Notes: generated from the letters alone by a model not told the origin. Numbered from the stretch's first letter, positions 44,866 through 60,733 are shown. The stretch is 64,000 nucleotides of DNA from a virus (IMGVR_UViG_3300033142_000925:16784-80783); one strand, 5' to 3'. Numbers and translations: made by a program.

Positions 44866-45663
44866 TTACCTTCCCGCCCCAACAACGTTAGGGATTTTCC
44901 GGGATAGGTAGTTGATAATTTTAGCTGCTGAATTGCCTTCATATCCTCTATCGTATACGAAGTTAAGCATGTCATTATAGCTACCAATCTTATTATCTCT
45001 GACTGCTTTTAAAAGGTCACCAAACATTCCCCGTAGTTCTTCCGGGGGAACCATATTGTCGACCGTTGATCCCTGAAGACTCTCAGGACTGAGGGCACGA
45101 CCGCCTGTAAATACAGACGCATCTACTCCACCACCCGCCATGAGTGCTTTAGCGAAAGCGGCGAACGGTACCATCTGAACACCACCAAGAGTCCCATCAT
45201 TGACGGGCCTATGTGTGATCGCGGTTTCGTCCCATATAACTTGCTTGATTGCATTCTCGCTCTTTTGGAGAATACCACCACCGATTGAAGCGCCGAGGCG
45301 CTTTGCCCCACTCTGGATATTCTTCCAAACCTTCTGTGCGATGTCGTTGGCCTGATACAGATAACCTTTTACAAGGGTCCTGTGATCTTTAGTGAACTTC
45401 ACTTCCAACGGTTCGCCGATGATGAATCCCGGATCATGTGTCGCTTTATGCTTGTGATCCCACGATAGAACACCGTGCGAGAGGAAGTAGTCGGCGGCTT
45501 TCTGTAAGGCCGCCATGTCTACGGTCTCTCCGTCCTGATCTTTCATCTCGTTAGAGGCTTGGAGATAGACTATCCACTGCCCATTTTCTTCGGCGCCCTT
45601 GATAAGGACATCGCTGAATGGGCTGTAGAATGGGTTGCTAAGCTGTGCAATTCCCTGTCTCAT
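44866..45663 (-). CDS. Prohead protease
   Basis: ASNEMKDQDGE, LSWDH, IIGEP, LGASIGG, AITHRPVN. Confidence 0.88.
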   Translation of the reverse strand: MRQGIAQLSNPFYSPFSDVLIKGAEENGQWIVYLQASNEMKDQDGETVDMAALQKAADYFLSHGVLSWDHKHKATHDPGFIIGEPLEVKFTKDHRTLVKGYLYQANDIAQKVWKNIQSGAKRLGASIGGGILQKSENAIKQVIWDETAITHRPVNDGTLGGVQMVPFAAFAKALMAGGGVDASVFTGGRALSPESLQGSTVDNMVPPEELRGMFGDLLKAVRDNKIGSYNDMLNFVYDRGYEGNSAAKIINYLSRKIPNVVGAGR

Positions 45664-45790: not shown

Positions 45791-45799
45791 ACTATACCA
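45791..45799 (-). promoter_or_regulatory. Extended -10 promoter candidate for protease-scaffold-capsid operon
   Basis: TGGTATAGT overlapping stop codon of upstream gene. Confidence 0.4.
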
Positions 45800-46190
45800 C
45801 AGGATGGCCGTTTGAAACAAGTGCTTTGCAGTGGCGACATTTCACCTCCACAAGTGCCTTCTCTAACCCTCGACCTTTCAACAGAAGAGCGCCGCAATCA
45901 GGACACCGAAACTCATCAAGGTCCCCTCCAATCACAAGATTGAAACTCTTCTTGACTGTTTTCTTCCAATCCTTCTTGCCGCCCTTCCACTCATCCACTG
46001 TTTGCTTCTTCTTCGCTCGTTCCTTACTGAACTTCGGTTTGAACTCACCCGTCCGGGCCATACGTTTATAGATTCCTACAATGTACTCGTAGTCCTCACC
46101 GTGACCTTGTTCTTCGGCGCGTTCTTTGGCGAGCTTCCACTTCTCTTCGTCGAAGGGCTCACCATGTACCGTCTTCCAGTTAGGAGGCAT
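45792..46190 (-). CDS. Protein with C-terminal Mu Com-like Zn ribbon
   Basis: EFRCPDCGALLLKG.....VEVKCRHCKALV; N-terminal helical domain EEKWKLAK..IVGIYKRM. Confidence 0.75.
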   Translation of the reverse strand: MPPNWKTVHGEPFDEEKWKLAKERAEEQGHGEDYEYIVGIYKRMARTGEFKPKFSKERAKKKQTVDEWKGGKKDWKKTVKKSFNLVIGGDLDEFRCPDCGALLLKGRGLEKALVEVKCRHCKALVSNGHPVV

Positions 46191-46195
46191 TTGAT

Positions 46196-46534
46196 TTATT
46201 CGCCGAATACTTTCGGAAAGCTCTTCACCAAAAGGTCTAACTCCACGGCGGAAAGAGAGCGGGCTGCAAGTCTTTTCATTGCAACGCGAAGGTCTTCCAC
46301 ATCCAACGGTTTCACTTTCTTCGCTTTCGCTTTGGGTGCTTTCACAACTTCTGCTTCACTGGTTTTCTCAACCGCTCCCTCATCAGGCTCGGTTGCCGGG
46401 GTCTCAACGGTGGGAGTATCTGCTCCGGTTTCGTTGATCTCTTCGTCCTTAGATTTTTCGTCTCCTGCTGTCAGCACATCGGCCTCCTTGTCTTTGTCTC
46501 TTGCCATCGGTTTGTCTCCTTGCCCGCTCTTCAC
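46196..46534 (-). CDS. Acidic/lysine-rich hypothetical protein (start may be 46507)
   Basis: Low-complexity ORF; LVKS near C-terminus. Confidence 0.6.
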   Translation of the reverse strand: MKSGQGDKPMARDKDKEADVLTAGDEKSKDEEINETGADTPTVETPATEPDEGAVEKTSEAEVVKAPKAKAKKVKPLDVEDLRVAMKRLAARSLSAVELDLLVKSFPKVFGE

Positions 46535-46552
46535 GGGTTATTTAATACTCTA

Positions 46553-46561
46553 AGTATATCA
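46553..46561 (-). promoter_or_regulatory. Extended -10 promoter candidate
   Basis: TGATATACT with adjacent palindrome AGGTCC-N3-GGACCT (46563-46577). Confidence 0.4.
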
Positions 46562-46602
46562 CAGGTCCAACGGACCTCAAAACCTTGTTCTGCTATAATT
46601 GT

Positions 46603-47766
46603 CTAATTCCACGGGGTCGGTTTGATCAATTTTTCAGGATCGTCTATAGGCTTCTGAAGCCTTGCGCCCTCCCGCATAGCCGCCTCCATAGACGCTCTGA
46701 ACTTCGCATCGATGTCCTCAAACCCCTGAATGTACTTCACCCACGTACATCGACAGTGCGGGTGCTGAGTCCCAGCAGCTACCCACCAGTCAGCACGTCG
46801 GCGGCCATAGTTGTCTTTCCCCGGCCAGATCGCAGTGTACATTGTACCATCTATCATTACCTGATCGCCACTGTCAGGGGGTTCCGGCAATAGGACCACG
46901 ACCCTATCATTCACTTGACCCACACAAAACGGGCACGCCTCCGATGAGGATATGCCCTTCATGAATATCGTTTCATCCGGTCGCGCCCGGTCCATCTCTG
47001 TAATGAGTTGACCGTTGTTCATGGAGTTTCCGATCTCGGTCTCAGCTATACGCCGCCAGTCCCGATTCATCTCTCCGAACTTATCGAATAGATTCTCCCG
47101 GAGTTCCCGGTGACTCTGCCGATTCTTGATACCAGTTTGTAGGGTGTCATGGATCTTTTTGTACTGGTTCTGCTTCAGGTCCACAATCAACTCACCAGCG
47201 TGTTGCTGAGCAAAAGCTACGGTGTTCTGCCATAGCGGACCCTTCAGTTTGTTCATAGTGTCATCTACTGCATCCCGGACACTCAGATATCCGGCAGACA
47301 GAGAATCGTCAATGCTCATACCTTTGAGCAGCTTCCCCAGCGCAAGAGCGTGAGATGCGATCCGTTCCTCTTCTGGTGCATAGATATAATTGAATACCTT
47401 CAGGATGTCCCGCTTGATGATCTTCCACTGGCCTTTTGTCAACGGCTTCCCACTCTTTGGATCTATGAATATTCGGTTGTTCAACAGGAAGGGATCAGTC
47501 GAGGCTTTCGCCATGCCGATCCACTTCGAGGATATGACATTGTACATCTTGATCAGGTGCCGCTCGATACGGTCCTTGCTGAATGCTTCCAGTTCCCGGA
47601 CAGATCGAAACGGGGAGACCTCTTTCTGCTGTCTCTCAGAGTCGTATCCCAGCGCCTTGGTCAGCGCTGTTATTGCTTTGTCAAACTTCAATTCGGGATG
47701 GTGATGAAGGTTCTTGAGTTCAAGTACTATATGTGATTCACGAGTTTGAGAGCAAAGTTCACACAC
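46603..47766 (-). CDS. MuF / SPP1 gp7-like minor head protein
   Basis: DWRRIAETEI..MNNG, ACPFC, HPHCRCTW; GTG 47766 with GGAGG. Confidence 0.85.
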   Translation of the reverse strand: MCELCSQTRESHIVLELKNLHHHPELKFDKAITALTKALGYDSERQQKEVSPFRSVRELEAFSKDRIERHLIKMYNVISSKWIGMAKASTDPFLLNNRIFIDPKSGKPLTKGQWKIIKRDILKVFNYIYAPEEERIASHALALGKLLKGMSIDDSLSAGYLSVRDAVDDTMNKLKGPLWQNTVAFAQQHAGELIVDLKQNQYKKIHDTLQTGIKNRQSHRELRENLFDKFGEMNRDWRRIAETEIGNSMNNGQLITEMDRARPDETIFMKGISSSEACPFCVGQVNDRVVVLLPEPPDSGDQVMIDGTMYTAIWPGKDNYGRRRADWWVAAGTQHPHCRCTWVKYIQGFEDIDAKFRASMEAAMREGARLQKPIDDPEKLIKPTPWN

Positions 47767-47968
47767 GTCCGTGGCCCCTCCCTGCAAGGAAGGAACAATA
47801 GTTCAACCAGATCGAGGTATCCGTGGTCAGGTAGTCTTTTATCATTCTGCTACCCTCATCCATACTCCGATTCAGTGCGGCTTTAATATTTTTAGGGGGA
47901 GCTTTCCGGCCCATGTACTTACACCACTTTGCGAACCTGTCACCGGTTCTTAATGCTTCTGATCTCAT
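47759..47968 (-). CDS. Hypothetical protein
   Basis: 69 aa; overlaps both neighbours. Confidence 0.55.
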   Translation of the reverse strand: MRSEALRTGDRFAKWCKYMGRKAPPKNIKAALNRSMDEGSRMIKDYLTTDTSIWLNYCSFLAGRGHGRV

Positions 47969-48867
47969 GCTCCATACCTCTCCATATAGTTCCGATACCC
48001 TGACGAATGCTCCATCCTGAAGATGAAGTTATTCCGGGTACGCTTACTCGCGATCTGGTTCAGTAGGAATGCCTTGGCGAACGAATATGGAATCTTGATC
48101 TCCGCCTTCGCTGTCGCCCGTGTACGTTCCTTCTTTTTAACAATCTGCTTCACTCGGATCGTGAGGCTATCACCTTTATATTTCAGGTCCATGTCCTCAG
48201 CTTTCTTCGGGAGAATCCATTTCTTCTTCCCATTCGGTAACCCGGCTGTCAGCTTCGCAACCTTGGTTTTTATCATAGCACGAATATGAGAAGTAGACAG
48301 GTCCCCGGTCACTGACCAGCCGCCCATCCTCTTCTTTTCAGTCTTCACTCGGGACGCTTTCATAACCGGCAGCGCCGTGTCGTGCTTGCCTTCCTCATAG
48401 GTCCTGTATTCCTTGCCTTTCTTCGAGGTCTTTGTAATCGTCAGCTTGACCTTGGGCTTGGTAGAAAATCGTTCCTTCAATTGAATCAGTGACCGACCGA
48501 TCAGGTCCACAACTGCTTTCTTGTCACCAACAGGTGCGGGGGTTGATTTTACCCGGTCGACCACATCCTTATAGATTTGATGGGCCGTATCCGCTGGACC
48601 GTTCTTGATCGCTTCTACCAGACCCTCGAATCCTTTGATGTTCCGGGCCTGCATAACAGCGTCAACCTCGCTGCCAAGGTTGGTTGTCATTGCATAGTTG
48701 AAATATTCCCGGCCACGTCGCCACGAGTCAGCGAGTACCTGCTTTTCACCTTTCTGACCGCCCTCTACGACAACCCATTTCTTGCCGACCTTCTTACGGG
48801 TTGTCCCGTCGGCCCATGTGTGGGTTTCGCCCTGTGCGGCTGCCTTAGCTTTCAGTATCAGGTTCAT
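47965..48867 (-). CDS. Basic putative internal head protein
   Basis: Starts MNLILKA then GETHTWADG..RKKVGKKWV hairpin; Lys-rich. Confidence 0.6.
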   Translation of the reverse strand: MNLILKAKAAAQGETHTWADGTTRKKVGKKWVVVEGGQKGEKQVLADSWRRGREYFNYAMTTNLGSEVDAVMQARNIKGFEGLVEAIKNGPADTAHQIYKDVVDRVKSTPAPVGDKKAVVDLIGRSLIQLKERFSTKPKVKLTITKTSKKGKEYRTYEEGKHDTALPVMKASRVKTEKKRMGGWSVTGDLSTSHIRAMIKTKVAKLTAGLPNGKKKWILPKKAEDMDLKYKGDSLTIRVKQIVKKKERTRATAKAEIKIPYSFAKAFLLNQIASKRTRNNFIFRMEHSSGYRNYMERYGA

Positions 48868-50623
48868 CTTTCTTCCTATGAAGCGGTTCGTCGAAGATGG
48901 ATTCCATTCTCGCGATCCGGTCGTCGAATGCATTCTGCATAGCCTTCAGCAAAGCCATCTCAGATACGGTGGCATATACCATATTATAAACGCCCTGCGT
49001 CTCAACCTTGGTGATCGTGATAGAGGGGGCCCTCACTATAAACTCATGCTCATGTGCATGTTCAGATATGCCACTGGCCTCAGCCGCGCTATAGTTGACT
49101 TCGTTCACATCCTCAATCAGTTCGTCAATATCAATACCTTTGATCTTCTTGCTCTCACTGGTAAAGTCGTTGGCCAGAACAATGACAGTTCCTCCGGCAT
49201 TCGCGAATCCTTTTGCTGTTGACTCCTGAGTAGAAAATGAAGCCATGCCTACAGGAATCACATCCCCTACCTTCGCTACCTTCCAGTCATCATTACCTGT
49301 TCCCCTGTACAGTTCATTATGAGTAGCGGTCATCATTTTAGCCAAGACCACATCCCCTGTATTGTTGTAAGCTACTGACCCCGGATCGAGCCCGTCCCGT
49401 CGTTTGGTATCCGCTTCCTTTACAATAGATCGAGTTTCCCTAACATTATTTCCACGGACCCATTCACCAATAGTATTCAGATCGTCAGCGTCCCATTCAA
49501 GATCACTACGATCAGTCATGGTAAAATCTTCAAGGTCACCTCCGGCCTCTTCCTCAGCCTCATCCAATACTTTTTGTACCCAGTCCTCAGTACCAGATAT
49601 GCTCATACCATTATTGATCATCATGGAAAGCGCTTCACCTTCCTCAACTTCTATATAATCATTCGAATCTGAAAAGCTCCATACATCACTATCGGACAAA
49701 ATCGGATTTCCTTGATGCTCCCACCAATCCTTGATTTGATCTATATCCACCTCGCCATACTCATCAGTAGCATTATTATTGATATACGCAAAAGCCTCAG
49801 ATGTAGCTACAGCATCATCCCAATCAAGATCCCCTTCCATAGCAAGGCCCATTTCAAACCATTGACTATCATTGGAGTTATCGATAAAACCTTGAATATC
49901 CTCATTCGTTTTCAGGTGTTCACGAATCCATGTCCGAGCATCCAATCGGAGACCTTCGTTGCCGTAGTCCTCATCCTCATCTTCCCGGTCCATAACCGTG
50001 TTAATGATATGAATGGTTGCTCGTTTGATATCGTCTTCAGTAATCGGTTTTGGTGCTTCTTTCATATCGAAGTCAGCCGTATCCTCAAACCAACTCTCGG
50101 CCTTGTCCTGAATGAGTCCCGCCTTGCCGATTATATCATTCATCTTGTCTTCGCCATGCGTATCCAATGTATTTATCGCACGCTCTTTGAGATCCGCCGC
50201 AGATTCCCCGGACCCGCCGGTTACTACTTTCAGACCGGTGGATACCTCAGTCACCACCACGTCAGGGCCTACGCTGTTGTTTCTCTCAATCTCCCGGTGA
50301 ACCACAAACGACTTACCGAACTTATCGAATCTCTCCACAATAGCTTTGTCAGGTATTCGTATCGCCTCTTTAACAACATTAGTGGAACCCTCGTCCGGCT
50401 GCTTGTCCCGGAGAACGTACACACGGTTATCGCCCTTCGGTCCTTTCGGTACCGGAGCCGGGAGCATAACAAGGTCTTGATGGTTGATGATCGTGGGATT
50501 CTTTGGGGCCTGATCAGGGCGCACATAGAATGTCTGGATAAAAGGCTTTCCCTTCCTTGAGACCATTCGTTTTACTGGCACGAGCCCTTTCCGACTCATG
50601 GTTGCCTTGATCAGTAGTCGCAT
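48845..50623 (-). CDS. ADP-ribosyltransferase (R-S-E class, Alt/VIP2-like) multidomain protein
   Basis: C-terminal ELYRG, ASFST, EHEFIV motifs; N-terminal MRLLIKA tag; LLKA after ART domain. Confidence 0.75.
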   Translation of the reverse strand: MRLLIKATMSRKGLVPVKRMVSRKGKPFIQTFYVRPDQAPKNPTIINHQDLVMLPAPVPKGPKGDNRVYVLRDKQPDEGSTNVVKEAIRIPDKAIVERFDKFGKSFVVHREIERNNSVGPDVVVTEVSTGLKVVTGGSGESAADLKERAINTLDTHGEDKMNDIIGKAGLIQDKAESWFEDTADFDMKEAPKPITEDDIKRATIHIINTVMDREDEDEDYGNEGLRLDARTWIREHLKTNEDIQGFIDNSNDSQWFEMGLAMEGDLDWDDAVATSEAFAYINNNATDEYGEVDIDQIKDWWEHQGNPILSDSDVWSFSDSNDYIEVEEGEALSMMINNGMSISGTEDWVQKVLDEAEEEAGGDLEDFTMTDRSDLEWDADDLNTIGEWVRGNNVRETRSIVKEADTKRRDGLDPGSVAYNNTGDVVLAKMMTATHNELYRGTGNDDWKVAKVGDVIPVGMASFSTQESTAKGFANAGGTVIVLANDFTSESKKIKGIDIDELIEDVNEVNYSAAEASGISEHAHEHEFIVRAPSITITKVETQGVYNMVYATVSEMALLKAMQNAFDDRIARMESIFDEPLHRKKDEPDTES

Positions 50624-50626
50624 CTG

Positions 50627-51055
50627 TTACCCCCTGAAGTATGTTATTATGACTATGAGGACCATACACACAGCCATAAACCCAGACAGAACTTCAACCC
50701 GGTGAGTCTTGAGCCATCTCTTTTCAGATTGTATCTTCATCTCCCGCTCATCCATCTTCCGATGGACAATGTTCTCAATCTGGTTCTGGTCCACTCCTCC
50801 ACGCTGATACATTTCTTTAACTGTCGTGGCTATCTCAGTCACCCGTTCATTGGTATTGCTGATCTTTGTATCGTATCCGTCAAATAGTTTCTCACGGACC
50901 TCTCCCACCTTTTCAGAAATCTCTTTCTGGTGGTTGTTTTGATTATGTTCCATTCTGTCCAACCGTTTATCCATAGCCGTCAATAACACCTCATGCTGTG
51001 ATATTAAATTAGCATTGTATAGGCACTGTTTACTTGCGCCGGGCGTATCACTCAT
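50627..51055 (-). CDS. Coiled-coil protein with C-terminal TM (XhlA-like)
   Basis: HE..L..MDKRLDRME; C-terminal hydrophobic helix. Confidence 0.55.
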   Translation of the reverse strand: MSDTPGASKQCLYNANLISQHEVLLTAMDKRLDRMEHNQNNHQKEISEKVGEVREKLFDGYDTKISNTNERVTEIATTVKEMYQRGGVDQNQIENIVHRKMDEREMKIQSEKRWLKTHRVEVLSGFMAVCMVLIVIITYFRG

Positions 51056-51393
51056 CAGTACTCACTCCTATCAAACTCTCCCGGAATTACGTTCAACTTC
51101 GCTGCGGAGATGCTTTCCTCTGCCATGATGCGGGCCTTCTGTAACGAGTCCCGCTCCCCCAACTTGTTTACATAGCGATCTTTCAGATCGTGGTACACTT
51201 CATCGTACGGTCCTTCCTTTTTCTGATCGAGCCGTTTTCGTAAAGCATCCATATCAGAGTTCAGTCGGTCGATCCCTTTATTGGCCGCTTCGATAACCTG
51301 TTCCTGTTCGCGAACAATGATAGCAGCTTTCGTATCCAGTTTTACCTTGACCGCATCGAGTTGGTCTGCGCTCTTCTCCGCCTGATTACGCAC
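51055..51393 (-). CDS. Coiled-coil hypothetical protein
   Basis: 112 aa helical; coupled to neighbours. Confidence 0.6.
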   Translation of the reverse strand: MRNQAEKSADQLDAVKVKLDTKAAIIVREQEQVIEAANKGIDRLNSDMDALRKRLDQKKEGPYDEVYHDLKDRYVNKLGERDSLQKARIMAEESISAAKLNVIPGEFDRSEY

Positions 51394-54300
51394 TTCGGGC
51401 CTCCTCTTCGTATTTGTTCAGCATACCGATAAATCCCTTATCATCCAATGCCGTTACCGACCGAGGATTGCCGATGATATTCATTTCTTTCCGCTTCGTG
51501 GCCATCAAGTCTTCAGACCGCATATCCATAGGGTTCACACCGGACAGAACATAGGTCGAAGTATCCCTATCCTGACCCTTCCTGAATATCCGGGCGTTCC
51601 GCTGATCAAATGCGGCTGCGCTGTCCGGTATATCCAAGTGAAAAGTGACCGATCCCCCAGCCTGTAAGTTATGGCCGGATTCGAGAGTCTTAGTCCCTAC
51701 AATGAACCTGAGCGGATTGCCCGGATCATTAAATGCGGCCTTAGTCTTTGCCATCTCTCCGGGACCGGTCTCACCGTGAATCATCGCAACGGACCCTACA
51801 CCAAACTCTTTCTCAAGTCTCTTCTGAGCCGTTCGCATAGCCTTCAGTACGGGTTTACCCGGCTGGGATACGTGAACAACTGCCTTCTCTCCGGGATGGT
51901 TATTCTTCATCGTGTCGATAATCGTATCGACCTTAGCATTACTCTCGGTATAGCCGTCAGATAGAATCGAATAGTTTCTGGAATCTCTACGAGCCGAAGC
52001 TCCGGGAAGTTTCTGTTCCCGCTCATCCCTATATTGCCTCTCACTTGCCGCATACGCTTTCCGCTGTGGAGCAGACATTGGAATACGGAGTGTATTGACC
52101 TTGTTCTCAACCGGTAGTTGATTCTTCTGCGTGTAAACCCAGTCTCCGGTCTCTTTCCTGAACGCATCGTTGGCAGCGTCCTGAAATATGCCGGTACCTT
52201 GGTTGAGTCCCTTATATCGCTTCTCAAAATCAGCCATTGAACCCATACCATGTTCAGGATCAATGAAGTTGATCTTCCTGTAGAGTTCCTTCTTTGACGT
52301 TTTGATGTTCGTACCTGACATAGCCATCTTCAGAGGAACGTCTGCGAGTTGATCTAAAGCCTTATATCTCCCAGCCGCACCAGTACCGGCAGTCATTTCA
52401 TGAATCTCATCTAAAACAACCATATCGTATCCGGCATCTTTCAGGATCGAAGCGTCTTCCCTGAGTGCATCCTGTGAAACGATATGAATACCGTCCTGTT
52501 CAAGGTGTCGGCGGTGACGTTCAGTCTTCGAAGTGTTGGAGGTCGACTGCCTGACGAGCTTCTGCATATCCTTATCAAGGAAAGTCTCGCGTTGTTTGTG
52601 GAAGTCGCCACGAGTACCTGACGGGGTTACTACCAGAATCTTCTTAGCTCCCTTATTAGCCATAGCATCCATGATCCCCGCATAGGCAATTCCTGTCTTT
52701 CCAATACCCGCTTCAAAGTCTAACAGAACCCTACCCTTCTCATTGAAGAAACGGAGTCCGGCTTCCTGTGCTGCATCGAACTTGATACTGTCCTTAATAC
52801 CCGGTGGTTTATATCCGGTATTTGATTCATGAGCCTTGATAGCTGCAAGATTATCCTTCTCTGCCGACTTGTCAGCAGCACCCTGAAAGAAGTTGTTCAG
52901 AGACTCTTTCGGAATCTCCATGACCAGCCGCTTAGCGCGCCCTTTCTTAACGGTTCGTATCGAATAGGTACCTTTCTTCAAACCGGCATTCTTAGCCCTG
53001 TCACGAGCCCGTGCAAGGTCCTTACCCATATCTACCTGTACAACATCAGCCGGTGGATCTTCCAGCGCGTTGATCATATGCGCGGCTGCTCTCAGAGAAC
53101 CTACAGCCGTACCCAGTGCGCGCTGTGCTGCGGTGATCTGCTTCAGAGCATGACCATTAGCTGAGGCCATGGACAGGATTGCTTCGGCATCGTCTTTGTC
53201 CCGCGCCAGTCCCCTAATATCATCAGCGTTGGCCAGTCGTTTCTTGGTTTCCTTCAATGCACGGTCAACGACTTTCTCACGTTCTGTGGCTACATACTCT
53301 TCAAGGGCCTTACGCACGACTTCGCCCTTACCATCCAATTGGATCTTTGCGGTGACCGCTCGGGCCACAGCTTCAATCCCCAGTTCCTTTACAGTGTCAG
53401 TCGTGAAAGTAGCACCGGAACCGTACACATCTCCGATCAATCCGTTCAATGCGGAGATTGCACCTTGGTCAACATGCCCGTTGATCGCCTGACTCTGAGC
53501 ATTGAGGATGTCATACATCTGAATATTCTTTGCTGTCTCGGCCTGATCCTTGACCTGTCTCTGGATCTCATCCATTTCACTGGTCGTGGCTGCGGCAAAC
53601 ACCGCTCCAACCTTCAGGTCGGAAGGAATGTCAGCACTCTCCGCACCGATGGCCTTAATCGCTTTCCTGAACTGCTTTCTGGCTGCCAGTACTTCAAGAG
53701 CCTTGTCCTTATCGAGTAAGGTCTTCAGTTCCGGTGCTGCGTTAGGGTCCTCGGGCATATAGTCTTTCATCAGGGTGTTGAGCGCTTCCCGCTCCACATT
53801 CTTGACTTGCTTCTGGACCGCTTTCTTGAGTTCCTTCTCAGACTGCTTATCAACTTCGTTTTCAATAGCCTTCTCATCCATGGTCTTAAACGCCTTTCGC
53901 GCTTCAACCATCTTCCGGGCCTTGTCCTCAAGTTCTTTCATCTGCTTAGCACTAATATTATCTCTGATCTCATCAGGGGTAACACCCAGAATATCTGTAA
54001 CCACCTCAGTATAGGCGGCTCGGGCTGTCTTTCGTGCTGCGTGCTGAACTTTACGGGTTGCTGCGGCCTCGCTGATCTCTTCCTTGGTCAGCGCCTTCGT
54101 TTCTTCTTTTTTCTTAGCCTCGATCCGTTTCCGCTTCACAGTATAGTCTTCACGGCTCATGATATTGTCAATCTTCAGGTGATTCAGTTTCCCACCGGCC
54201 CCGCCGACCACGACATAGCCGCCGTCACTGGTTCCCTGCAACAGGACCCTTGCACCCCGGATCGTAACCCAGCGCATTCCACGAGCTTTCACTTCATCGG

Positions 54301-56359
54301 CTGAGTAATATTTCTTACCCTCGCCGTTTGCTTTCATAAGATCACCCAGCCAGAAGAACTTGATCAGCTTATGATTGCGATGGAGAAACCATTGTCCGCT
54401 ATCGCTCTTGAGCAAGTCCCCTTCTCCGAATGATTTGTTCACTCCGAACCTGTCTACCAGATTCGTAATTCTCTGTTCCATAATTCGCCTCAGTTTCGGG
54501 TCTTCAATACCCGCAAGGATTACGCCTTTCTTAGACAGTACGTTTGTCAGTTGTTCACGGATATCATTATCACTCACGAGGCCGAACACCGAGGAAGCCG
54601 AACGGGAGGGATCTCGAAGACTCTCGACTTCGGTAACATCCCCACCAAATGAATCGCCTTTCGGAGCGCCCTGTGCCCTGTAGCGTAATGATCCACCATT
54701 GTCGATTCTCCATGCTCTCGCACCGTCCCATATAACATTATCATTATCCATACCCAGAACATCCCAGTTACTCACCAACGCGTCGGCCAGAAACCCATCC
54801 CGAAGCTGCTTCATAGCCTCAGACTGTTCATCTCCATAGAGGTCGGAAAGTGGTACGCCCTCAATATAGTCGGCAACCTGTACGAGCTTCCCCTCACTGT
54901 CGTGTGAAAGTTGAACATCAGGGACCGCCACACCGAGCGTTTTGTAGATTCGGTTCGCCATGTATTCATCTTTGAGATGACCTTCACCGGTTGAACGTTT
55001 CAGGACCTTCTCTTCACCATTGGCCAGCCTGACATGGGCTGCGCCTCCGGTAGTCCCTCCAAGATTCTTGAGGGTGGCATAATGTCCCATACCTCTGGGC
55101 CGCTTCCCACCATTATCAGGATATGTATAATGCCATCGACCGTTCTTGAAGTACTTATTGATATACTTTGACTTCTGTAGCTTCATCGATTCTTTAATCT
55201 CATCAGGTCCGAACAGGTGCATAGCGTATTTCAAGGAAAGCTCTTCGAATGCGGTTGTCATGCCTTCTGACTTACTCTTCATAACCTTCGCCGGGTTCAA
55301 TTTCATATAGTTGACATTCGGCCTTCCATGCGCTTTATAGTCCCAAGCCTTCGGCGCGTACTGGTCATCCCATGCCACGGTCTCAGTCACCTCGAATCCA
55401 TATTTCGAATATATCTTAGGTAACACGTCACCCAGACAATCCAATGACTTCGCTCCATTCTTTATAGCCGTCTTCATGATTGAAGCGCCTTCATGGGCAC
55501 CCGGTTCAGAGAAAACAGATATAAGGTCTCCGTCACCGGTAACCGCATAGCCGCTCTTACCTGTCTCGGAGATATACGCCTTGGCACGCTTGCCCTCATA
55601 TTCTTTCGCAGTGTAGGAAGTAACAAACGCATCGAACTCTTTTGGAGTCTTTGCGTCTCGAACAGGTACAAACTCAGCTAAGGGAACATTGGAATAAGTT
55701 GTGACCAGTTTGATAGCGTCCTTCTTATCCACGAAGGTCGCCAGTTCTTTTTTAGCTGGCTTACGCCCTTTCTTGTCACCGGGGTATTCATAGTACCAGC
55801 GTCCATCCTTGCCCCGCCATCGTTTGGTATACTTTGCCTTCTCCAAGTGACCGATACTGTCATTATCCGCAGTCAGAATGTATGTTTTAGACTTCCGTAA
55901 TTTCTTAGGCGGCTTCAGAGTCAACCCTTTCCGGTCCTTCAACATCTGTTTGAAGGTTGCCATATCTACCTGATCACAGGACCCGTAATAATCTGATCGG
56001 TCATACTGTCTCTGGTATGCTGCCTTGGCTTCTACCTGACTGTTGAACCCGAGCATACACTTGTCTTCATCATAGTTACCGGTATATGGATCATTTTGGT
56101 GTACGATATATACCTTATCGGAGAACTTGCTGGGTCCCATATATACATCCACATGATCACCGTCGACACCGAGAGTAAGACGCACATAGCCATAAGCAAT
56201 ATGCATAAAAGTACGCCACATATTCCCATGATCGTCCTCCCCCTGCCTGTAAGTTCCTCGTTCATTCTCAATTGAGATGGGTAATCCCTGAAATGTGCAT
56301 TTGCCTTGGAGCTTGCGACTGCGCCAGTCTACTGCATTAGTAATAATGCCTCGTTTCAT
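51386..56359 (-). CDS. Polyvalent protein: InPase + GNAT + PI3/4K-HipA-like kinase + SNF2 helicase
   Basis: YGY...GVDGDHVDV..YDEDKCMLGF; DLISVFS..GAKSLDC..LPKIYSKYGF; EYMANRIY..DALVSNWD..RIDNG; EAGIGKT, DEIH, SGT, GHNLQ, QRNARIFRKGQ. Confidence 0.85.
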   Translation of the reverse strand: MKRGIITNAVDWRSRKLQGKCTFQGLPISIENERGTYRQGEDDHGNMWRTFMHIAYGYVRLTLGVDGDHVDVYMGPSKFSDKVYIVHQNDPYTGNYDEDKCMLGFNSQVEAKAAYQRQYDRSDYYGSCDQVDMATFKQMLKDRKGLTLKPPKKLRKSKTYILTADNDSIGHLEKAKYTKRWRGKDGRWYYEYPGDKKGRKPAKKELATFVDKKDAIKLVTTYSNVPLAEFVPVRDAKTPKEFDAFVTSYTAKEYEGKRAKAYISETGKSGYAVTGDGDLISVFSEPGAHEGASIMKTAIKNGAKSLDCLGDVLPKIYSKYGFEVTETVAWDDQYAPKAWDYKAHGRPNVNYMKLNPAKVMKSKSEGMTTAFEELSLKYAMHLFGPDEIKESMKLQKSKYINKYFKNGRWHYTYPDNGGKRPRGMGHYATLKNLGGTTGGAAHVRLANGEEKVLKRSTGEGHLKDEYMANRIYKTLGVAVPDVQLSHDSEGKLVQVADYIEGVPLSDLYGDEQSEAMKQLRDGFLADALVSNWDVLGMDNDNVIWDGARAWRIDNGGSLRYRAQGAPKGDSFGGDVTEVESLRDPSRSASSVFGLVSDNDIREQLTNVLSKKGVILAGIEDPKLRRIMEQRITNLVDRFGVNKSFGEGDLLKSDSGQWFLHRNHKLIKFFWLGDLMKANGEGKKYYSADEVKARGMRWVTIRGARVLLQGTSDGGYVVVGGAGGKLNHLKIDNIMSREDYTVKRKRIEAKKKEETKALTKEEISEAAATRKVQHAARKTARAAYTEVVTDILGVTPDEIRDNISAKQMKELEDKARKMVEARKAFKTMDEKAIENEVDKQSEKELKKAVQKQVKNVEREALNTLMKDYMPEDPNAAPELKTLLDKDKALEVLAARKQFRKAIKAIGAESADIPSDLKVGAVFAAATTSEMDEIQRQVKDQAETAKNIQMYDILNAQSQAINGHVDQGAISALNGLIGDVYGSGATFTTDTVKELGIEAVARAVTAKIQLDGKGEVVRKALEEYVATEREKVVDRALKETKKRLANADDIRGLARDKDDAEAILSMASANGHALKQITAAQRALGTAVGSLRAAAHMINALEDPPADVVQVDMGKDLARARDRAKNAGLKKGTYSIRTVKKGRAKRLVMEIPKESLNNFFQGAADKSAEKDNLAAIKAHESNTGYKPPGIKDSIKFDAAQEAGLRFFNEKGRVLLDFEAGIGKTGIAYAGIMDAMANKGAKKILVVTPSGTRGDFHKQRETFLDKDMQKLVRQSTSNTSKTERHRRHLEQDGIHIVSQDALREDASILKDAGYDMVVLDEIHEMTAGTGAAGRYKALDQLADVPLKMAMSGTNIKTSKKELYRKINFIDPEHGMGSMADFEKRYKGLNQGTGIFQDAANDAFRKETGDWVYTQKNQLPVENKVNTLRIPMSAPQRKAYAASERQYRDEREQKLPGASARRDSRNYSILSDGYTESNAKVDTIIDTMKNNHPGEKAVVHVSQPGKPVLKAMRTAQKRLEKEFGVGSVAMIHGETGPGEMAKTKAAFNDPGNPLRFIVGTKTLESGHNLQAGGSVTFHLDIPDSAAAFDQRNARIFRKGQDRDTSTYVLSGVNPMDMRSEDLMATKRKEMNIIGNPRSVTALDDKGFIGMLNKYEEEARSA

Positions 56360-56850
56360 TCGACACCCTCCAACATCTTATTCGAATAGGTGGTCTTCCT
56401 CTTAGCGCTCCAATCTTTCCAGACTCCATTCAGACCGTAACCATATTTAAAATCCCCCGGAGCTAACGGGTTACTGGGTAGGCTGTTCTTGACATTGAAC
56501 GTCACCTCCCCAAAGTCGGCATACATCACCACGTACTTACCCGGATACTTCCTGCTCATAGCCGCACCGTACTTCTTAGCATCGGCGACCTTCCAGCCTT
56601 TCTTATTAGCGTCAATCCTCACGGATACATTGCCGGTGGTCCCACTACTCGAAGGTTTACCGGAGATTTCTAAAGGCATAGGCTTCTTATGCGCGGATTC
56701 ACGCCGCTTCGTTGGTGGGGGAGACTTAGGTCGGGGCGCGCTCTTTTTCTTCTTAGCCCCGTAGTAGTACTTATAGTTCCCCGGCGTGCCAGTCCGTTTC
56801 GTGTAATTAGACTTCAACAACTCGATGGGATCAACAATTATAATTCTCAT
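56356..56850 (-). CDS. Basic putative internal head protein
   Basis: MRIIIVDPIELLKS-NYTKRTGTPGNYKYYY tag. Confidence 0.6.
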   Translation of the reverse strand: MRIIIVDPIELLKSNYTKRTGTPGNYKYYYGAKKKKSAPRPKSPPPTKRRESAHKKPMPLEISGKPSSSGTTGNVSVRIDANKKGWKVADAKKYGAAMSRKYPGKYVVMYADFGEVTFNVKNSLPSNPLAPGDFKYGYGLNGVWKDWSAKRKTTYSNKMLEGVE

Positions 56851-56874
56851 CTACACCTCACCTTTATGAACGGT

Positions 56875-57735
56875 TTAGCTCCGTGGCTTTTTTACATTCT
56901 TAACCGGTGTGTGTTTTGTGGTTGACTCAGGTTTGCTCGACCCTATCTCTTCGGGTTTCACAATGATGGTCCTGCGACCAAAATTGTCATGAGCGCGGCT
57001 GCCTGAACCTGACGCACTGGCATTGTAGTTTTTGTGAGGTGCTTTCGCGCCCTTCACTCGACCCTTGCCATCAACACGTTTGGTGTCGGCGTACTTGCCC
57101 TCATCTTCGGGCTTGCTTGAGCCGATCATCCTTTCCGCTGCCATCTTCGCGAACTTCATTCGTTCGGCATGACCTTCGTAGGGAATCTTGCTCTTAGTCT
57201 TACCACTCACATTTGAGAGGCTTGCCGGATGGTCTGCTTTCTCCAAAGGTTCAATCTCTCCGGGAACCAGAATCAGTGCAAATCTTGTTTTCATATCACC
57301 CTCCAATAGTGACTTGTTCACGTTTTCATTTTCCATCTCGATGAGATGGGTATAGTATTTCGAATCTTCGTGCAAGTGATCCAACGCAATCTCTCGCGCT
57401 ACCCCTTTGCTTGAAGTGTGTTCCATTTCAATCTTGATCCCGAGCTTCAATTCTTTCGGGTCAACTTCCATTGTATCGCCTTCCTTGTGAAGACCTTCTT
57501 TCTTCAGGTGGTCAACTGCCGCTTTGGATTTAGAAAGACTGCTTACAATCGACTTAACATCGCGCGGACTCATTTTATACTTGGCTCCTATCGCATTGAG
57601 CGTAGACTCTGAAGGATTCGAGTTCTTGAGAAACAACTGAGCAATAGCTTTCGCAGTCATCTTGTATCCAATCTCATCACCACAAGAACCGGTCACAGGT
57701 CCTGTAGCTACGGACTCAAGTTTCTTCTTATTCAT
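56875..57735 (-). CDS. DUF5661-like domain protein
   Basis: ELKLGIKIEMEHT....AREIALDHL.ED.KYYTHL; flanked by LSKS, VNKS, LEKA. Confidence 0.7.
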   Translation of the reverse strand: MNKKKLESVATGPVTGSCGDEIGYKMTAKAIAQLFLKNSNPSESTLNAIGAKYKMSPRDVKSIVSSLSKSKAAVDHLKKEGLHKEGDTMEVDPKELKLGIKIEMEHTSSKGVAREIALDHLHEDSKYYTHLIEMENENVNKSLLEGDMKTRFALILVPGEIEPLEKADHPASLSNVSGKTKSKIPYEGHAERMKFAKMAAERMIGSSKPEDEGKYADTKRVDGKGRVKGAKAPHKNYNASASGSGSRAHDNFGRRTIIVKPEEIGSSKPESTTKHTPVKNVKKPRS

Positions 57736-57871
57736 CGTCATCCGCCGGATCAAATCCTAATATCTGAACAACCTCTTTCGGGGTTGACTCCTGCTTGTCA
57801 TCATCCGGGGAAGTATCGGGAGTCCATGCAACTTCCTCGGCTGATCCGATATACACATCAGGTGCTTTCAA
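57728..57871 (-). CDS. 47-aa acidic protein (absent from ORF track)
   Basis: GGAGG + TTG: MKAPDVYIGSAEEVAWTPDTSPDDDKQESTPKEVVQILGFDPADDDE; fills gap and overlaps both neighbours. Confidence 0.6.
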   Translation of the reverse strand: MKAPDVYIGSAEEVAWTPDTSPDDDKQESTPKEVVQILGFDPADDDE

Positions 57872-58748
57872 CTTTCCGCCTCCACTTTTCAAAGATCGCC
57901 GGGTTCACATAGCTGCCCAGCGCCACCACTCGGGTGTTGCCCAGTTGCTTAGCTACTGCATTGCCCACAGCAATCACAGCCTTCTTATACTCGACCATGG
58001 TCTTAGGGGCATTACCCCTCATTGCTTTCATAGCAACCTCAGTTCCGAGGTGGGTTCTGAAATCCTTGCTCTGGAACTTCGCCCCGTCTCCCAGTCGGTG
58101 GGTATATCTCAAAAGGCCGTCGCCGGTAACACCGAACAATCGACCTGTTTTTCCTGTCTCACGCTTCCTCTTCAGAAGCATCTTTGCCACACTCGCATCG
58201 GTTACGGGGATTTCCAAGTCGATCCCTTTCTTCCCGACGAACTTCAGGACCACACCAGAATCGGTACGTTTTACGTGTCGCCCTTCCAGTGTCGTAGCGC
58301 CGAATGCGTCGACGCTCCCTTTCGTATTCTTCTCGCTGCCCGGTCTGATCCCCGTACTCATGATCAACCATAAGACCGTCGCCGCCTCGTTCTTCCCCTT
58401 CACGTCGGCAGCAACCTCTTGATTGATCCCGTCGAAGGCTTTGTTCAGCGCTCGTATCCTTGCAAACTTTTCCTTGCTTGCCGAATCCACATGAGCCGGA
58501 TTGTAGATGTACTGCGTTCGCCCTTTGGCATCGTCGCCCTTCACCCACAGCTTGGATTTCGGATCGCTGAAATACTGAAGGTTCGTCCACGCGGGAGGAA
58601 CCTTGAACTTGTTCTGTATCCGGGCGGGCAGCTTGTCCCTGTTCTTCACAGGAACCCATCTCCCCTCGGCTATCTTTACATACTTGCCGCTCTTGCTTTT
58701 CGCACCGATGGCGGCCCGTTTTGCTTTGGTGAAGATGATCAGTTTCAT
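57858..58748 (-). CDS. DNA topoisomerase IB (poxvirus/bacterial type)
   Basis: VPPAWT, DAKGRTQYIY, GIRPG, FGATTL, FVGKKG, KDFRT, LGNT....GSY; catalytic R-K-R-N-Y intact. Confidence 0.93.
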   Translation of the reverse strand: MKLIIFTKAKRAAIGAKSKSGKYVKIAEGRWVPVKNRDKLPARIQNKFKVPPAWTNLQYFSDPKSKLWVKGDDAKGRTQYIYNPAHVDSASKEKFARIRALNKAFDGINQEVAADVKGKNEAATVLWLIMSTGIRPGSEKNTKGSVDAFGATTLEGRHVKRTDSGVVLKFVGKKGIDLEIPVTDASVAKMLLKRKRETGKTGRLFGVTGDGLLRYTHRLGDGAKFQSKDFRTHLGTEVAMKAMRGNAPKTMVEYKKAVIAVGNAVAKQLGNTRVVALGSYVNPAIFEKWRRKVEST

Positions 58749-59102
58749 TTAGCCCCATACTCCCACAACCGTCATCCAGAAGAATCCATTATAGAATGCC
58801 GTCATCAAGATGCGCCCGATGGGTGTTTTCTTGTTGATGATCTTCATCCGATCCCCTTCAGTCTTCACATATGCAAACAAAGCTACCAGCAACGCACCGG
58901 CCAGTTGTCCCAGCTTCAAGGGCTGCCAGACCATAGTCAAATCACTTTTCAATATGAGCGCCTGACTTCCTAATACTCCCAGAACCAACATCCCGTATAC
59001 ACCGAACTTGATCATCCATCGCCGGTGTTTTGACTTCGCCTCTTCGATGACTCGTAATCGCTCTTCAAGGACTGCGCGGGGTATTGGTTTCCTTGCGGCC
59101 AT
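58749..59102 (-). CDS. Three-TM membrane protein
   Basis: Three hydrophobic segments; directly after portal. Confidence 0.6.
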   Translation of the reverse strand: MAARKPIPRAVLEERLRVIEEAKSKHRRWMIKFGVYGMLVLGVLGSQALILKSDLTMVWQPLKLGQLAGALLVALFAYVKTEGDRMKIINKKTPIGRILMTAFYNGFFWMTVVGVWG

Positions 59103-60671
59103 CTACTCCACCAATATGCGGAGTGTCCGCTCTTTAGATTTAGTTAGGGTCTGTAATTCCTTCAAAGACTTCTCAGCCTTATCGTCATCTTTTTCCGTTC
59201 TGGTAGAATCTGGTTGTTCGGCGGCCTCTTCAGCCTCCTGACCCTGAGCGCTTTCGCCCTGATCTTCCTGACCAAATCCACCCATTCCCATGCCCTGTTC
59301 AGCCATTTCCTTCTGCTGCTCGGCCTGTTTGTCACCCATGGCCATCTGTACAGCCTGAGCATTCATAGGCATCTCTGACCAGTCTTCTTTGAAAGGGTCG
59401 AGTCCGTCCTCTTCACGGACCTCATCGATTGTTCTCCATCCCATGATCTGCTTGTTTCGGACTTCGGCTTTCTTCTGTTCGTCCTCACGTTCGAGACCGA
59501 CAAACTTAAACCGGTATTTCTGAGTGACCTTCCTGATCACCTTGTTGACGTGTTGTTCTGTGAATCCCAGCATTGAAGCAAGGCCCCGGTCCTTAGAGGA
59601 TTGTATCCGGGGCTCTGCATTCTCACCGATGATCGATGTGCTGTCGTCTGTTTTTATTCCAAGCTCTGCAAGGTCCATCGAGAATACAGCACCCACGAGC
59701 GAAGATACGAACATCATGGTTTTATGATATTCCATATCCTTGTTCGACGTGGACAGGTTCTTGAAGTCGACCCCCACACCGTCCTTTCCACTCGGTAAGA
59801 TAGGGATCGAGAATTGCGCTCCCGATCCGGTCATAGCTGCATACCAATAATTTCGTATGCTATCCAATTGAGGCTTGGCCACATCACCCATGACAGAAAT
59901 GAAACCTTTCGGTACACGGTCCTTAATCAACTGATCCCGGATGTAATTGTATCCAAATAGCAGCGTGGTAATAATGTTGATACACATCTCAACCGGGCTG
60001 TATCCATAACCACGATACTTGACATCAGACCGCTTGAACTTGTAGTCGAATATCAGATTCTCGCTCTTGTACTCTGCATATATTTTCTCATCGATCTTCT
60101 GAACGAAGCGGACCCCTTGGCCCCATCGCTTTTCGTCTATGACGCGTCCGATGGTTGCTCCGTCTAACCCCCAGAACGCCACCGGTTCACCCAGTCTGTT
60201 ATACTGGATTTCCGTGGCGACTTGATCGATTTCATACGTGTCGCGAACCAACATAGAAACATAATCCATGAAGTCGTCTTCACGTTCCCCGTCAAATACG
60301 AATCCAGTCTGCTCTATGAAGTTGGTCAACTCTATTATTTCACTTTCGTTCTCTTTCTCACCTCGGTACTCTTGCGTCCGGTTCTCAATCTCAAATCGAA
60401 AGCCGCGATCATTCTGTTCTGTCGCGTACTTCAGAAAGGGGAGAATCTGGTCCTGTCGGGTATTGATAATTCCATTGATCAACGGCAACTGACCAACAGA
60501 TCGTCTGAGCGTATCAAAGTTAAGTTGAAGTATCCGTTCCCGGACTCCCTGCGCTCCGCCCCAGAGCCATGTCTGGACCCTTGGATCGACGAGTTGACTG
60601 GTAAGTTTTCTGATTGTTGCATCCTCGTTAAAGGATACGGCTGTATTTGATTTCTTCCTTTTTCTTGCCAT
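59103..60671 (-). CDS. Portal protein
   Basis: IINTRQDQI, LVRDTYEIDQ, LDGATI, YGYSPVE, KDMEY, SKDRGL, TIDEVREEDGL.P; start MARKRKK with GGAGG. Confidence 0.93.
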   Translation of the reverse strand: MARKRKKSNTAVSFNEDATIRKLTSQLVDPRVQTWLWGGAQGVRERILQLNFDTLRRSVGQLPLINGIINTRQDQILPFLKYATEQNDRGFRFEIENRTQEYRGEKENESEIIELTNFIEQTGFVFDGEREDDFMDYVSMLVRDTYEIDQVATEIQYNRLGEPVAFWGLDGATIGRVIDEKRWGQGVRFVQKIDEKIYAEYKSENLIFDYKFKRSDVKYRGYGYSPVEMCINIITTLLFGYNYIRDQLIKDRVPKGFISVMGDVAKPQLDSIRNYWYAAMTGSGAQFSIPILPSGKDGVGVDFKNLSTSNKDMEYHKTMMFVSSLVGAVFSMDLAELGIKTDDSTSIIGENAEPRIQSSKDRGLASMLGFTEQHVNKVIRKVTQKYRFKFVGLEREDEQKKAEVRNKQIMGWRTIDEVREEDGLDPFKEDWSEMPMNAQAVQMAMGDKQAEQQKEMAEQGMGMGGFGQEDQGESAQGQEAEEAAEQPDSTRTEKDDDKAEKSLKELQTLTKSKERTLRILVE

Positions 60672-60696
60672 GGGTATCTGGTACCTCCACAACTTG

Positions 60697-60705
60697 ATTA
60701 TAACA
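60697..60705 (-). promoter_or_regulatory. Extended -10 promoter candidate for portal operon
   Basis: TGTTATAAT between terminator and portal RBS. Confidence 0.55.
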
Positions 60706-60733
60706 TGATAGTCCACTCAAACAAAAGGGCATG

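Follow-up and report, generated by a model that had tools for sequence, protein, structure and literature searches.

The head genes and the proposed cargo block

We have studied a stretch of 64,000 nucleotides from an uncultured phage (IMGVR_UViG_3300033142_000925:16784-80783), which we will call the window: it is the right-hand 64 kb of a virus record of 80,783 bp, and nearly all its genes are found on the minus strand. The head genes follow the order portal, cargo block with a MuF-like gene, protease, scaffold and major capsid protein (MCP). The block between the portal and the head protease is accessory and spans 14 kb. It contains a type IB topoisomerase (Topo IB), a DUF5661 protein, a 164-aa protein, a polyprotein which goes from InPase to an SNF2 helicase, a 592-aa protein, a 300-aa protein, the MuF-like protein and small genes. 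Unrelated proteins of this block share a cassette with three parts: a short leader or spacer, the motif L-x-K-[AS] and a basic aromatic segment. Such a shared label on genes placed between the portal and the protease suggests that the enzymes which carry it probably enter the capsid, undergo trimming and are delivered together with the DNA. The genes concerned are the following:

59103-60716, minus strand: portal protein (Pfam Phage_portal 3.8e-17; phrog_12 1.8e-36; probable start M16)
57858-58748, minus strand: type IB topoisomerase with an N-terminal tag (Pfam Topoisom_I 7e-20, residues 91-276)
56875-57753, minus strand: two-module DUF5661 protein (Pfam DUF5661 1.8e-11)
56356-56850, minus strand: 164-aa protein with no assigned function, tagged (match to the strict leader pattern)
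51386-56359, minus strand: polyvalent protein InPase...SNF2 helicase, 1657 aa (Pfam InPase 1.3e-39; SNF2-rel_dom, Helicase_C)
48845-50623, minus strand: 592-aa protein similar to ADP-ribosyltransferases (ART), tagged (match to the strict leader pattern; structural neighbours in the atlas)
47965-48867, minus strand: 300-aa protein with no assigned function, tagged (match to the strict leader pattern; AGGAAG ribosome-binding site before an internal ATG)
46603-47787, minus strand: MuF-like minor head protein with an HPHCRCTW motif (weak matches to phrog_115, minor head protein, and phrog_2662)
44866-45663, minus strand: prohead maturation protease (phrog_1028 head maturation protease, 1.1e-21)
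44159-44839, minus strand: scaffolding protein (phrog_15087 2.3e-5; eight [LVM]-x-K-[SA] sites)
42764-44158, minus strand: major capsid protein, SU10_MCP (PDB 9vel, SPO1 gp6.1, 3.8e-34; PDB 5lii, phi812 MCP, 3.1e-20)

This genome is called G000. It has two larger relatives, G001 (91 kb) and G002 (a fragment); related IMG/VR loci are named L013 (in G001), L014 (in G002) and so on.

Tagged genes and their leaders

Behind L-x-K-[AS] we find one of three types of basic, aromatic segment, with a net charge of +3 to +7. Type A, KY(T/I)KR..G..G.W.Y.Y, is present in the 164-aa protein and at two junctions of the polyprotein. Type B, K..P.GT.....KK.AEGKWV.V, is found in Topo IB and in the 300-aa protein, and type C, LVPV....GK.F.QT.YV, in the ART-like protein. 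A first-pass annotation of this DNA had described a single basic aromatic beta-hairpin: its charge and its aromatic residues are as described, and a hairpin is predicted for type A (see below), but there are three sequence classes rather than one.

The peptides which that annotation had quoted for Topo IB, the 164-aa, ART-like, 300-aa and DUF5661 proteins, the polyprotein and the portal are all present on the minus strand. In Topo IB the tag (58647-58748) has the leader MKLIIFTKA followed by KRAAIG..GKYVKIAEGRWVPV, a type-B hairpin, and it aligns with the type-B tags of other proteins (profile A7). The tag of the 164-aa protein (56761-56850) reads MRIIIVDPIELLKS followed by NYTKRTGTPGNYKYYY, with the leader MRIIIVDPIELLK before S and a type-A hairpin; it is conserved, while the rest of the protein cannot be aligned. 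The ART-like protein starts with MRLLIKA, then TMSRKGLVPVKR..FIQTFYV with a type-C hairpin (50522-50623), and this tag is kept in its L013 and L014 homologues. Its C-terminal third (residues 380-560) has structural neighbours in the ART/ModB families of the atlas (TM score 0.55-0.57); a Pfam search of the protein gave no match. Finally, the 300-aa protein has its true start at 48867 and a type-B tag (48766-48867), MNLILKA followed by KAAAQGETHTWADG..KKWVVV; its homologues begin with MILFLKHKA (L013) and MIYTITKA (L014).

A strict leader pattern, M-x-[LIVF]3-x(0-9)-K-[AS], has four matches in the six frames of the whole 80,783-bp genome. All of them are gene starts in the portal-protease interval: Topo IB, the 164-aa, the ART-like and the 300-aa protein. 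The probability of such a placement by chance among 82 open reading frames (ORFs) is 4e-4, for a pattern picked after the fact. In the 91-kb relative G001 the same pattern finds a single real gene, because that genome often uses K-G or other variants: the strict pattern is therefore not a general detector.

Proteins of the head module have 49 [LIVMF].K[AS] sites when 19.7 are expected from shuffles of each protein (2.5-fold), and those of the rest of the genome have 50 when 39.7 are expected (1.26-fold). The observation is real and non-random. In the tail region a 248-aa protein (16226-16972, minus strand) begins with MGIISTFNKA, which resembles leader and site and has no hairpin; this resemblance may be due to chance.

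The site in the capsid protein, scaffold and protease

The MCP is homologous to those of Herelleviridae, and in tblastn it matches 712 phage records. It is about 28% identical to the Herelleviridae MCPs and to those of Mecenats66 and Touem01, two cultured myoviruses of about 90 kb. Its predicted maturation site is ELTK29↓A30 (44069-44080; the arrow marks a putative cut), followed by the N-arm (44006-44068). In the alignments of the PDB search, ELTK29↓A30-LEAGSGVDA stands opposite ALNK↓A-LEAGHTVNP of SPO1 gp6.1 (9vel), and K29↓A30 is opposite DVVK24↓S25-FQTGYGI of phi812 (5lii), so that the positions coincide exactly. The phi812 chain in 9row has 439 aa, compared with 463 in 5lii; by alignment it begins at S25 and we take it as the mature protein, which places a Lys-Ser cut at the bond aligned with K29-A30. 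In these alignments the likeness to the Lys-Ser maturation of Twort-like capsids, noted in the first pass, is accurate to the residue. Eight related IMG/VR loci reach the start of the MCP gene, and all of them keep site and N-arm.

The scaffold was said to have about eight x-x-K-[AS] sites: there are exactly eight of the form [LIVMF]-x-K-[AS], with 0.9 expected, and 8-10 are found in each of the eight relatives whose locus includes the scaffold gene. In the scaffold of SPO1, x-K-[AS] is matched 12 times, and P3 is L, I, V or M in ten of these. The protease has four [LIVMF].K[AS] sites, with 0.77 expected. It also has an internal segment, FAK↓A-LMAGGGVDASVFTGGRALSPES (45079-45156, minus strand), which copies the MCP site and mature N-arm, LTK↓A-LEAGSGVDASGFAGGRALIPE. 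Nine of ten relatives keep this copy (L009 has it in a shortened version). It is also found in SPO1 (PLDK↓SLEAGYEVDPEKMEGGDVFRKESLD, with ALNK↓ALEAGHTVNPLDLEGGGAFRVESLE in the MCP), in Touem01 and, in a looser form, in Mecenats66. The MCP-like arm may be the route by which the protease is built into proheads and then released. L-x-K-[AS] is the probable cutting site of the head protease of this phage.

The portal ends in LTKS↓KERTLRILVE (59106-59147): x-K-S is followed by ER(T/R)(V/L)xI(V/L)(I/V)E and the stop codon, a form kept in L013 and L014. The last residues are KERTLRILVE here, ERRVHIVIE in L013 and KERTVKIVIE in L014; the portals of Mecenats66 and Touem01 end in ..MFK↓AFGFPLMRKGE and ..MQK↓AFGLPPIFKIEP. 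It is possible that the hydrophobic strand behind K↓S is a partner for the leaders of the cargo, or else a trimmed tail.

Polyprotein junctions and modularity

The polyprotein joins disparate enzyme domains in one chain, InPase and an SNF2 helicase, to which its relatives add NUDIX and DUF5661. Two of its junctions have type-A cassettes. In the first one (55784-55900) LRKS is followed by a 17-aa spacer, LEKA and the hairpin (LRKS-KTYILTADNDSIGHLEKA-KYTKRWRGKDGRWYYEYP); in the second one (55121-55180) the hairpin comes directly behind LQKS (LQKS-KYINKYFKNGRWHYTYP). The DUF5661 protein also has a junction (57235-57321), VNKS-LLEGDMKTRFALILVPGEIEPLEKA, in which VNKS..FALILV..PLEKA leads into the second module; this module has leader and site and no recognisable hairpin. 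Ahead of the SNF2 part of the polyprotein there is a candidate triple site (54329-54442, minus strand; residues 640-677), VNKS-FGEGDLLKS-DSGQWFL..FFWLGDLMKA, which L013 and L014 also keep; it may mark one more junction or else be part of the structure.

Comparison with the relatives by blastp shows where the modules end. The InPase module (residues 1-167) is also found in G001, within a protein of 2553 aa, and in G002, within one of 800 aa. The part from 386/388 to 1657 corresponds to residues 1278-2548 of the same G001 protein and, in G002, to residues 156-1603 of another protein, which starts with NUDIX. These homology breaks, at about 167 and 386-388, coincide with LRKS...LEKA-KY (154-176) and LQKS-KY (394-398). 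In the DUF5661 protein, residues 62-148 match inside the L013 polyprotein and residues 155-276 match a separate 175-aa gene of L014, and the two halves of this fusion meet at its VNKS..FALILV..LEKA junction. Among G000, L013 and L014, modules which have a gene of their own in one phage are part of a fusion in another. Cassettes are carried by many more genes and junctions of G001 and G002. In G002 one and the same 17-aa hairpin peptide is encoded three times, with 7-12 differences in 51 nt between the copies, all of them synonymous, so conservation operates on the protein; this excludes a recent duplication or a linker conserved as DNA.

Two unrelated IMG/VR phages, L017 and L021, have a protease-scaffold fusion (reverse complement, 39-1676 and 3215-4882) in which ..VMAKS↓LEFMKDQ..TELKY-KYTKRTGGPGNYTYTYPDG and an additional small domain separate the protease from the scaffold. 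The cassette is therefore also found within head-assembly polyproteins.

Distribution of the cassette

A type-A profile built from ten cassettes was run on 1.84 billion representative proteins. It matched 297 protein clusters, 26 of them at E<=1e-10, and its matches reach E = 1e-20 to 1e-30. K-[AS] lies 0-4 residues upstream in 200 of 219 hairpins, the 219 being 105 N-terminal and 114 internal copies. The sites have L, I, V, M or F at P3 in 195 of 199 cases, compared with a background of 22%; P4 is Glu or Asp in 41% and P1' is Ala in 172 and Ser in 27. Upstream of about 70% of the internal copies there is another K-[AS], in most cases at a distance of 4-17 residues, so that two sites bracket a short spacer. 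A strict DNA pattern for KYTKRTG.PG.Y.Y.Y was found in seven stretches of IMG/VR. For type B the profile (A7) found at least 144 proteins, and K-[ASG] precedes 98 of 99 hairpins. Leaders such as MKLVFKA and MRLILKA recur with type B, which indicates that the same leaders combine with either hairpin type.

N-terminal copies always stand behind a leader of 5-26 residues that begins at Met. The leaders differ in kind: they are beta-like, helical or acidic, some amphipathic (ALELRKA), others acidic and Gly-rich, and many internal cassettes have no hydrophobic strand. The upstream hydrophobic strand of the first-pass annotation is therefore not universal.

Tagged proteins align only in their first 32 residues or so (A3/A5): as had been proposed, the tag is portable among unrelated proteins. 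The Pfam families found in them are InPase, Zeta_toxin, ART-PolyVal, DUF5661, S-AdoMet_lyase, Phage_Mu_F, MuF_C and LPD1, and also PBECR2, RelA_SpoT, DarA_C, ddrB-ParB, Acb1, Topoisom_I and GNAT. These domain assignments support the view that the tagged set corresponds to the polyvalent-protein repertoire plus anti-defence enzymes, including families with head-packaged members. The cassette has a grammar which can be read in the sequences compared here: it is conserved and portable, it matches the site of capsid protein and scaffold, and it is linked to families of cargo and to the head gene block.

We have not found the cassette described in domain libraries, solved structures or the searchable literature, in agreement with the first-pass annotation, which knew of no description. 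Pfam and PHROGs have no family for any tag region; the only domain match there, Phage_ProQ_C_like on the type-B hairpin in the 300-aa protein, is non-significant (E=0.24). A profile search of the PDB with the tag gave nothing relevant, and in the openly licensed literature no phage paper was found for the hairpin motif strings.

Structure of the tag was predicted with AlphaFold2 (AF2). For the 164-aa protein and an alignment of 57 tagged sequences, it places a helix at 8-12 and strands at 18-20 and 27-29 around a GTPGN turn, with pLDDT 69-88. This model supports a beta-hairpin for type A. It leaves the N-terminal hydrophobic run unpacked from the hairpin and gives no support to a three-stranded mini-domain.

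Cultured relatives

Two cultured phages have related sites. Mecenats66, a Morganella phage, has a MuF protein and a 1371-aa helicase, which starts with MKRLMIK↓ASIPAGAKWITVHPNG, between portal and protease. The protease of this phage begins with ..IFVLNSMLK↓AS and the site of its MCP reads SSMMK↓SLTAGY; in its scaffold x-K-[AS] is matched seven times, and P3 is L, I or M in five of these. In Touem01, a Pseudomonas phage, the MuF protein starts with VSLILDL..ELLFK↓S and the MCP site is VALQK↓SLQAGYGSD. The Mecenats66 protease and the Touem01 MuF protein have leader and site with no recognisable hairpin. For the type-A hairpin, a tblastn search with one tagged protein (P0019) against 50,697 cultured phage records found no match.

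Other genes of the block

The MuF-like protein has 394 aa. In blastp it matches proteins of 702 aa (L014) and 716 aa (L013) with an internal gap: residues 4-345 and 335-393 correspond to the two ends of the longer homologues, and about 290 of their middle residues are missing here. Small predicted membrane proteins are found on the minus strand at 58749-59102 (117 aa) and 50627-51055 (142 aa, with a C-terminal hydrophobic helix). A very acidic ORF of 54 codons (57728-57892, minus strand), ..ESTPKEVVQILGFDPADDDE, lies in a different frame over the 3' end of the gene for Topo IB; it is kept in L013 as ..ESTPQDVVAILGFDPNDEGD.

A probable cassette for capsid cargo

We favour, with moderate confidence, the interpretation of the 14-kb block as capsid cargo of the polyvalent type, tagged by a cassette of leader, site and hairpin: it would be a Lys-specific analogue of the capsid-targeting sequence (CTS) of phage T4. 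The first part would be a removable leader, in N-terminal position an M-(K/R)-hydrophobic run of 6-14 residues, in internal position a spacer of 4-17 residues which itself begins after a K↓S site. The second part, (E/D)-L-x-K↓(A/S), would correspond to the specificity of an SPO1/Twort-type head maturation protease, which presumably cuts the MCP at LTK↓A, the homologous site, and probably cuts the scaffold to pieces at the eight sites found there. The third part, an interchangeable basic aromatic beta-hairpin, would become the new N-terminus of the released module. The precursors would join the prohead core; the activated protease would then remove leaders and spacers and separate the modules of the polyprotein; the modules would remain in the head and exit with the DNA. 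Cutting at the cassettes, packaging and ejection are steps that we infer from the sequences. Ala and Ser N-termini are stabilising under the bacterial N-end rule, and Ala or Ser at P1' would probably give such N-termini to the released proteins.

The cargo interpretation was already that of the first-pass annotation, and it is partly supported. Portability, the match with the capsid site, the polyvalent repertoire and the coincidence of boundaries with tags agree with it, but its division of labour, with a leader that loads and a hairpin that tethers the protein to DNA, appears doubtful.

Several observations weigh against capsid cargo. L-x-K-[AS] is short and is also found within folded domains (Topo IB 101, SNF2 1504); several of these matches need not be sites. 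A deliberately loose N-terminal criterion is only weakly enriched (6 of 13 compared with 12 of 69, p=0.03), so the short motif is not diagnostic by itself and the composite is. Six small genes of the block have no cassette (58749-59102, 51055-51393, 50627-51055, 47759-47968, 46196-46534 and 45792-46190), and the MuF-like gene (46603-47787) has none either. With an alignment of 12 sequences, AF2 gives no structure to the tag of the 164-aa protein. The spacing from K-[AS] to the hairpin is constant, as could be the case if the site belonged to one folded or binding motif and not to a cut. Finally, the papers on Mecenats66 and Touem01 report no virion proteomics or mass spectrometry.

The best of the alternatives, which we consider rather unlikely, keeps cargo and cleavage and reverses the roles assigned in the first pass. 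The hairpin would be the address: its partner would be the scaffold, the portal, the protease or the inside of the capsid, or else it would lead the passage through the tail. The leader would be a protease substrate which leaves a stable Ala or Ser N-terminus. This alternative agrees with the conservation of the hairpin, which is the most conserved part and has identical peptides despite a synonymous divergence of 14-24%, with the variation of the leaders in type and length and their pairing with either hairpin type, with the internal cassettes that have no hydrophobic strand, and with the type-A hairpin inside the protease-scaffold fusions of L017 and L021. Against it are the cases with leader and site and no recognisable hairpin (Mecenats66 protease, Touem01 MuF protein, second DUF5661 module), and the +3 to +7 charge and the aromatic residues are also suited to bind nucleic acids. 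Some of it can be joined to the cargo reading that we prefer: the leader could be merely the unprimed-side substrate of the protease, and the hairpin may be an element for the capsid interior or for leading ejection rather than a DNA tether, since it is the best conserved part and is also present in the protease-scaffold fusions, while leaders are heterogeneous.

It is clearly less probable that the cassette is never cut and is a small domain or linear motif common in polyvalent proteins, such as a hairpin with a capping helix which binds nucleic acids or serves in oligomerisation. The likeness of L-x-K-A to the capsid site would then be fortuitous, and the proteins might never be packaged and do their work inside infected cells. 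The constant spacing and the short AF2 helix (residues 8-12) just ahead of the site are in its favour; AF2, however, does not pack the N-terminal strand on the hairpin. Against it, too, the P4-P1' profile, (E/D)-L-x-K↓A/S, is the one found at the sites of MCP, scaffold and protease in this lineage, and internal copies usually have their second site 4-17 residues upstream. It also leaves aside the Met-initiated leader always present in N-terminal copies, the coincidence of gene and module boundaries with the cassette, the position of the genes between portal and protease and the tags on MuF, DarA_C and ddrB-ParB, families with head-packaged members (PMC9024508). As to junctions conserved as DNA for recombination, or due to chance or low complexity, we have rejected this very improbable explanation: modules are clearly reshuffled at cassettes between related phages, but the copies with identical peptides have diverged synonymously (7-12 of 51 nt), the profile E-values are 1e-20 to 1e-30 in 1.84 billion proteins and the four strict matches all lie in one interval.

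The cargo reading can be extended, only tentatively, to a large clade of phages with SPO1/Twort-like heads. The three-part label would there define the whole injected proteome, the hairpin would be a new element that binds DNA, portal or capsid interior and leads the enzymes out, and the protease would ride in through its copy of the MCP N-arm.

If the cargo reading is true, sequence would be enough to tell which proteins many uncultured phages inject: anti-restriction S-adenosylmethionine lyases, anti-CBASS Acb1, ARTs, Zeta toxins, topoisomerase and helicases. It would also supply a processing rule for polyvalent proteins, whose maturation is so far put mainly to metallopeptidases, and a compact tag, released by the protease, with which foreign proteins could be brought into capsids which do not belong to the T4 lineage. 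Mecenats66 and Touem01 carry leader and site, so the hypothesis is testable. Its interest lies mainly in being general, readable from sequence and testable in these two cultured phages.

Comparison with known systems

Cleavable leaders for capsid targeting and the processing of cargo at a motif are already established in T4, in P1 DarB and in phiKZ/SPN3US. In T4 the internal proteins IPI-III and Alt have a CTS which the prohead protease, gp21, cuts off (Mullaney and Black 1996, as cited in PMC9024508, PMC9026906). As in our case, the CTS is a short N-terminal leader on unrelated proteins which ends in the motif of the head protease, the same motif serves the capsid protein and the scaffold, and the cargo includes an ADP-ribosyltransferase; here the unrelated proteins with a leader are four genes plus the 105 N-terminal copies of the database. 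However, the T4 motif is (L/I)-x-Glu↓ with a gp21-type protease, whereas here we find L-x-Lys↓Ala/Ser, a phrog_1028 protease and a head of SPO1/Twort type. T4 has neither a conserved hairpin after the cut nor cassettes at internal polyprotein junctions, both of them present here. Its CTS function was proven by experiment, whereas function here is inferred. By its sequence features the system of this window is an analogue of T4 capsid targeting and not a member of it.

In phiKZ-like phages and SPN3US the propeptides of head and ejection proteins are cut by gp175/gp245 (PMC10052503, PMC7411985). Many head-internal or ejected proteins are processed there at one short motif, as would be the case here, and propeptides are implicated in targeting. 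The differences are a protease related to that of T4, a motif which ends in Glu, the giant size of the phages and no described hairpin after the cleavage. In P1 the signal which loads DarB, a very large anti-restriction helicase/methylase, into the head is N-terminal, and its 30 or so residues suffice for this (PMC9024508). The P1 Dar system is similar to ours in that DarA_C and ddrB-ParB domains occur among the tagged proteins. It differs in that no grammar of protease site plus hairpin is described for its signal, and loading follows a hierarchy of Dar proteins (PMC9024508).

Polyvalent proteins are a cargo class defined by Iyer, Burroughs, Anand, de Souza and Aravind in 2017 (PMC5512222). 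They are chains of several enzymes beside portal and MuF genes, as here, and packaging and injection are predicted for them. Both repertoires contain InPase, ART-PolyVal, Zeta toxin, DUF5661, SNF2, MuF and PBECR. In the passages that we searched, processing is put mainly to zincin-like metallopeptidases or to fused assemblin-like peptidases, and we found no junction cassette or leader in them. In the window, on the contrary, the junctions carry the putative Lys↓Ala/Ser site of the head protease plus the hairpin, and genes with a single domain are tagged at the N-terminus.

Heads of the Herelleviridae type (phi812, 5lii/9row; SPO1, 9vel) have a homologous MCP and a site aligned to the residue. 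SPO1 also has the multi-site scaffold and the copy of the MCP N-arm in its protease. Its protease gene, however, comes directly after the portal gene, with no cargo block in between. We have seen the site applied to enzymes, over 14 kb, in the lineage of this window and, on a smaller scale, in Mecenats66 and Touem01.

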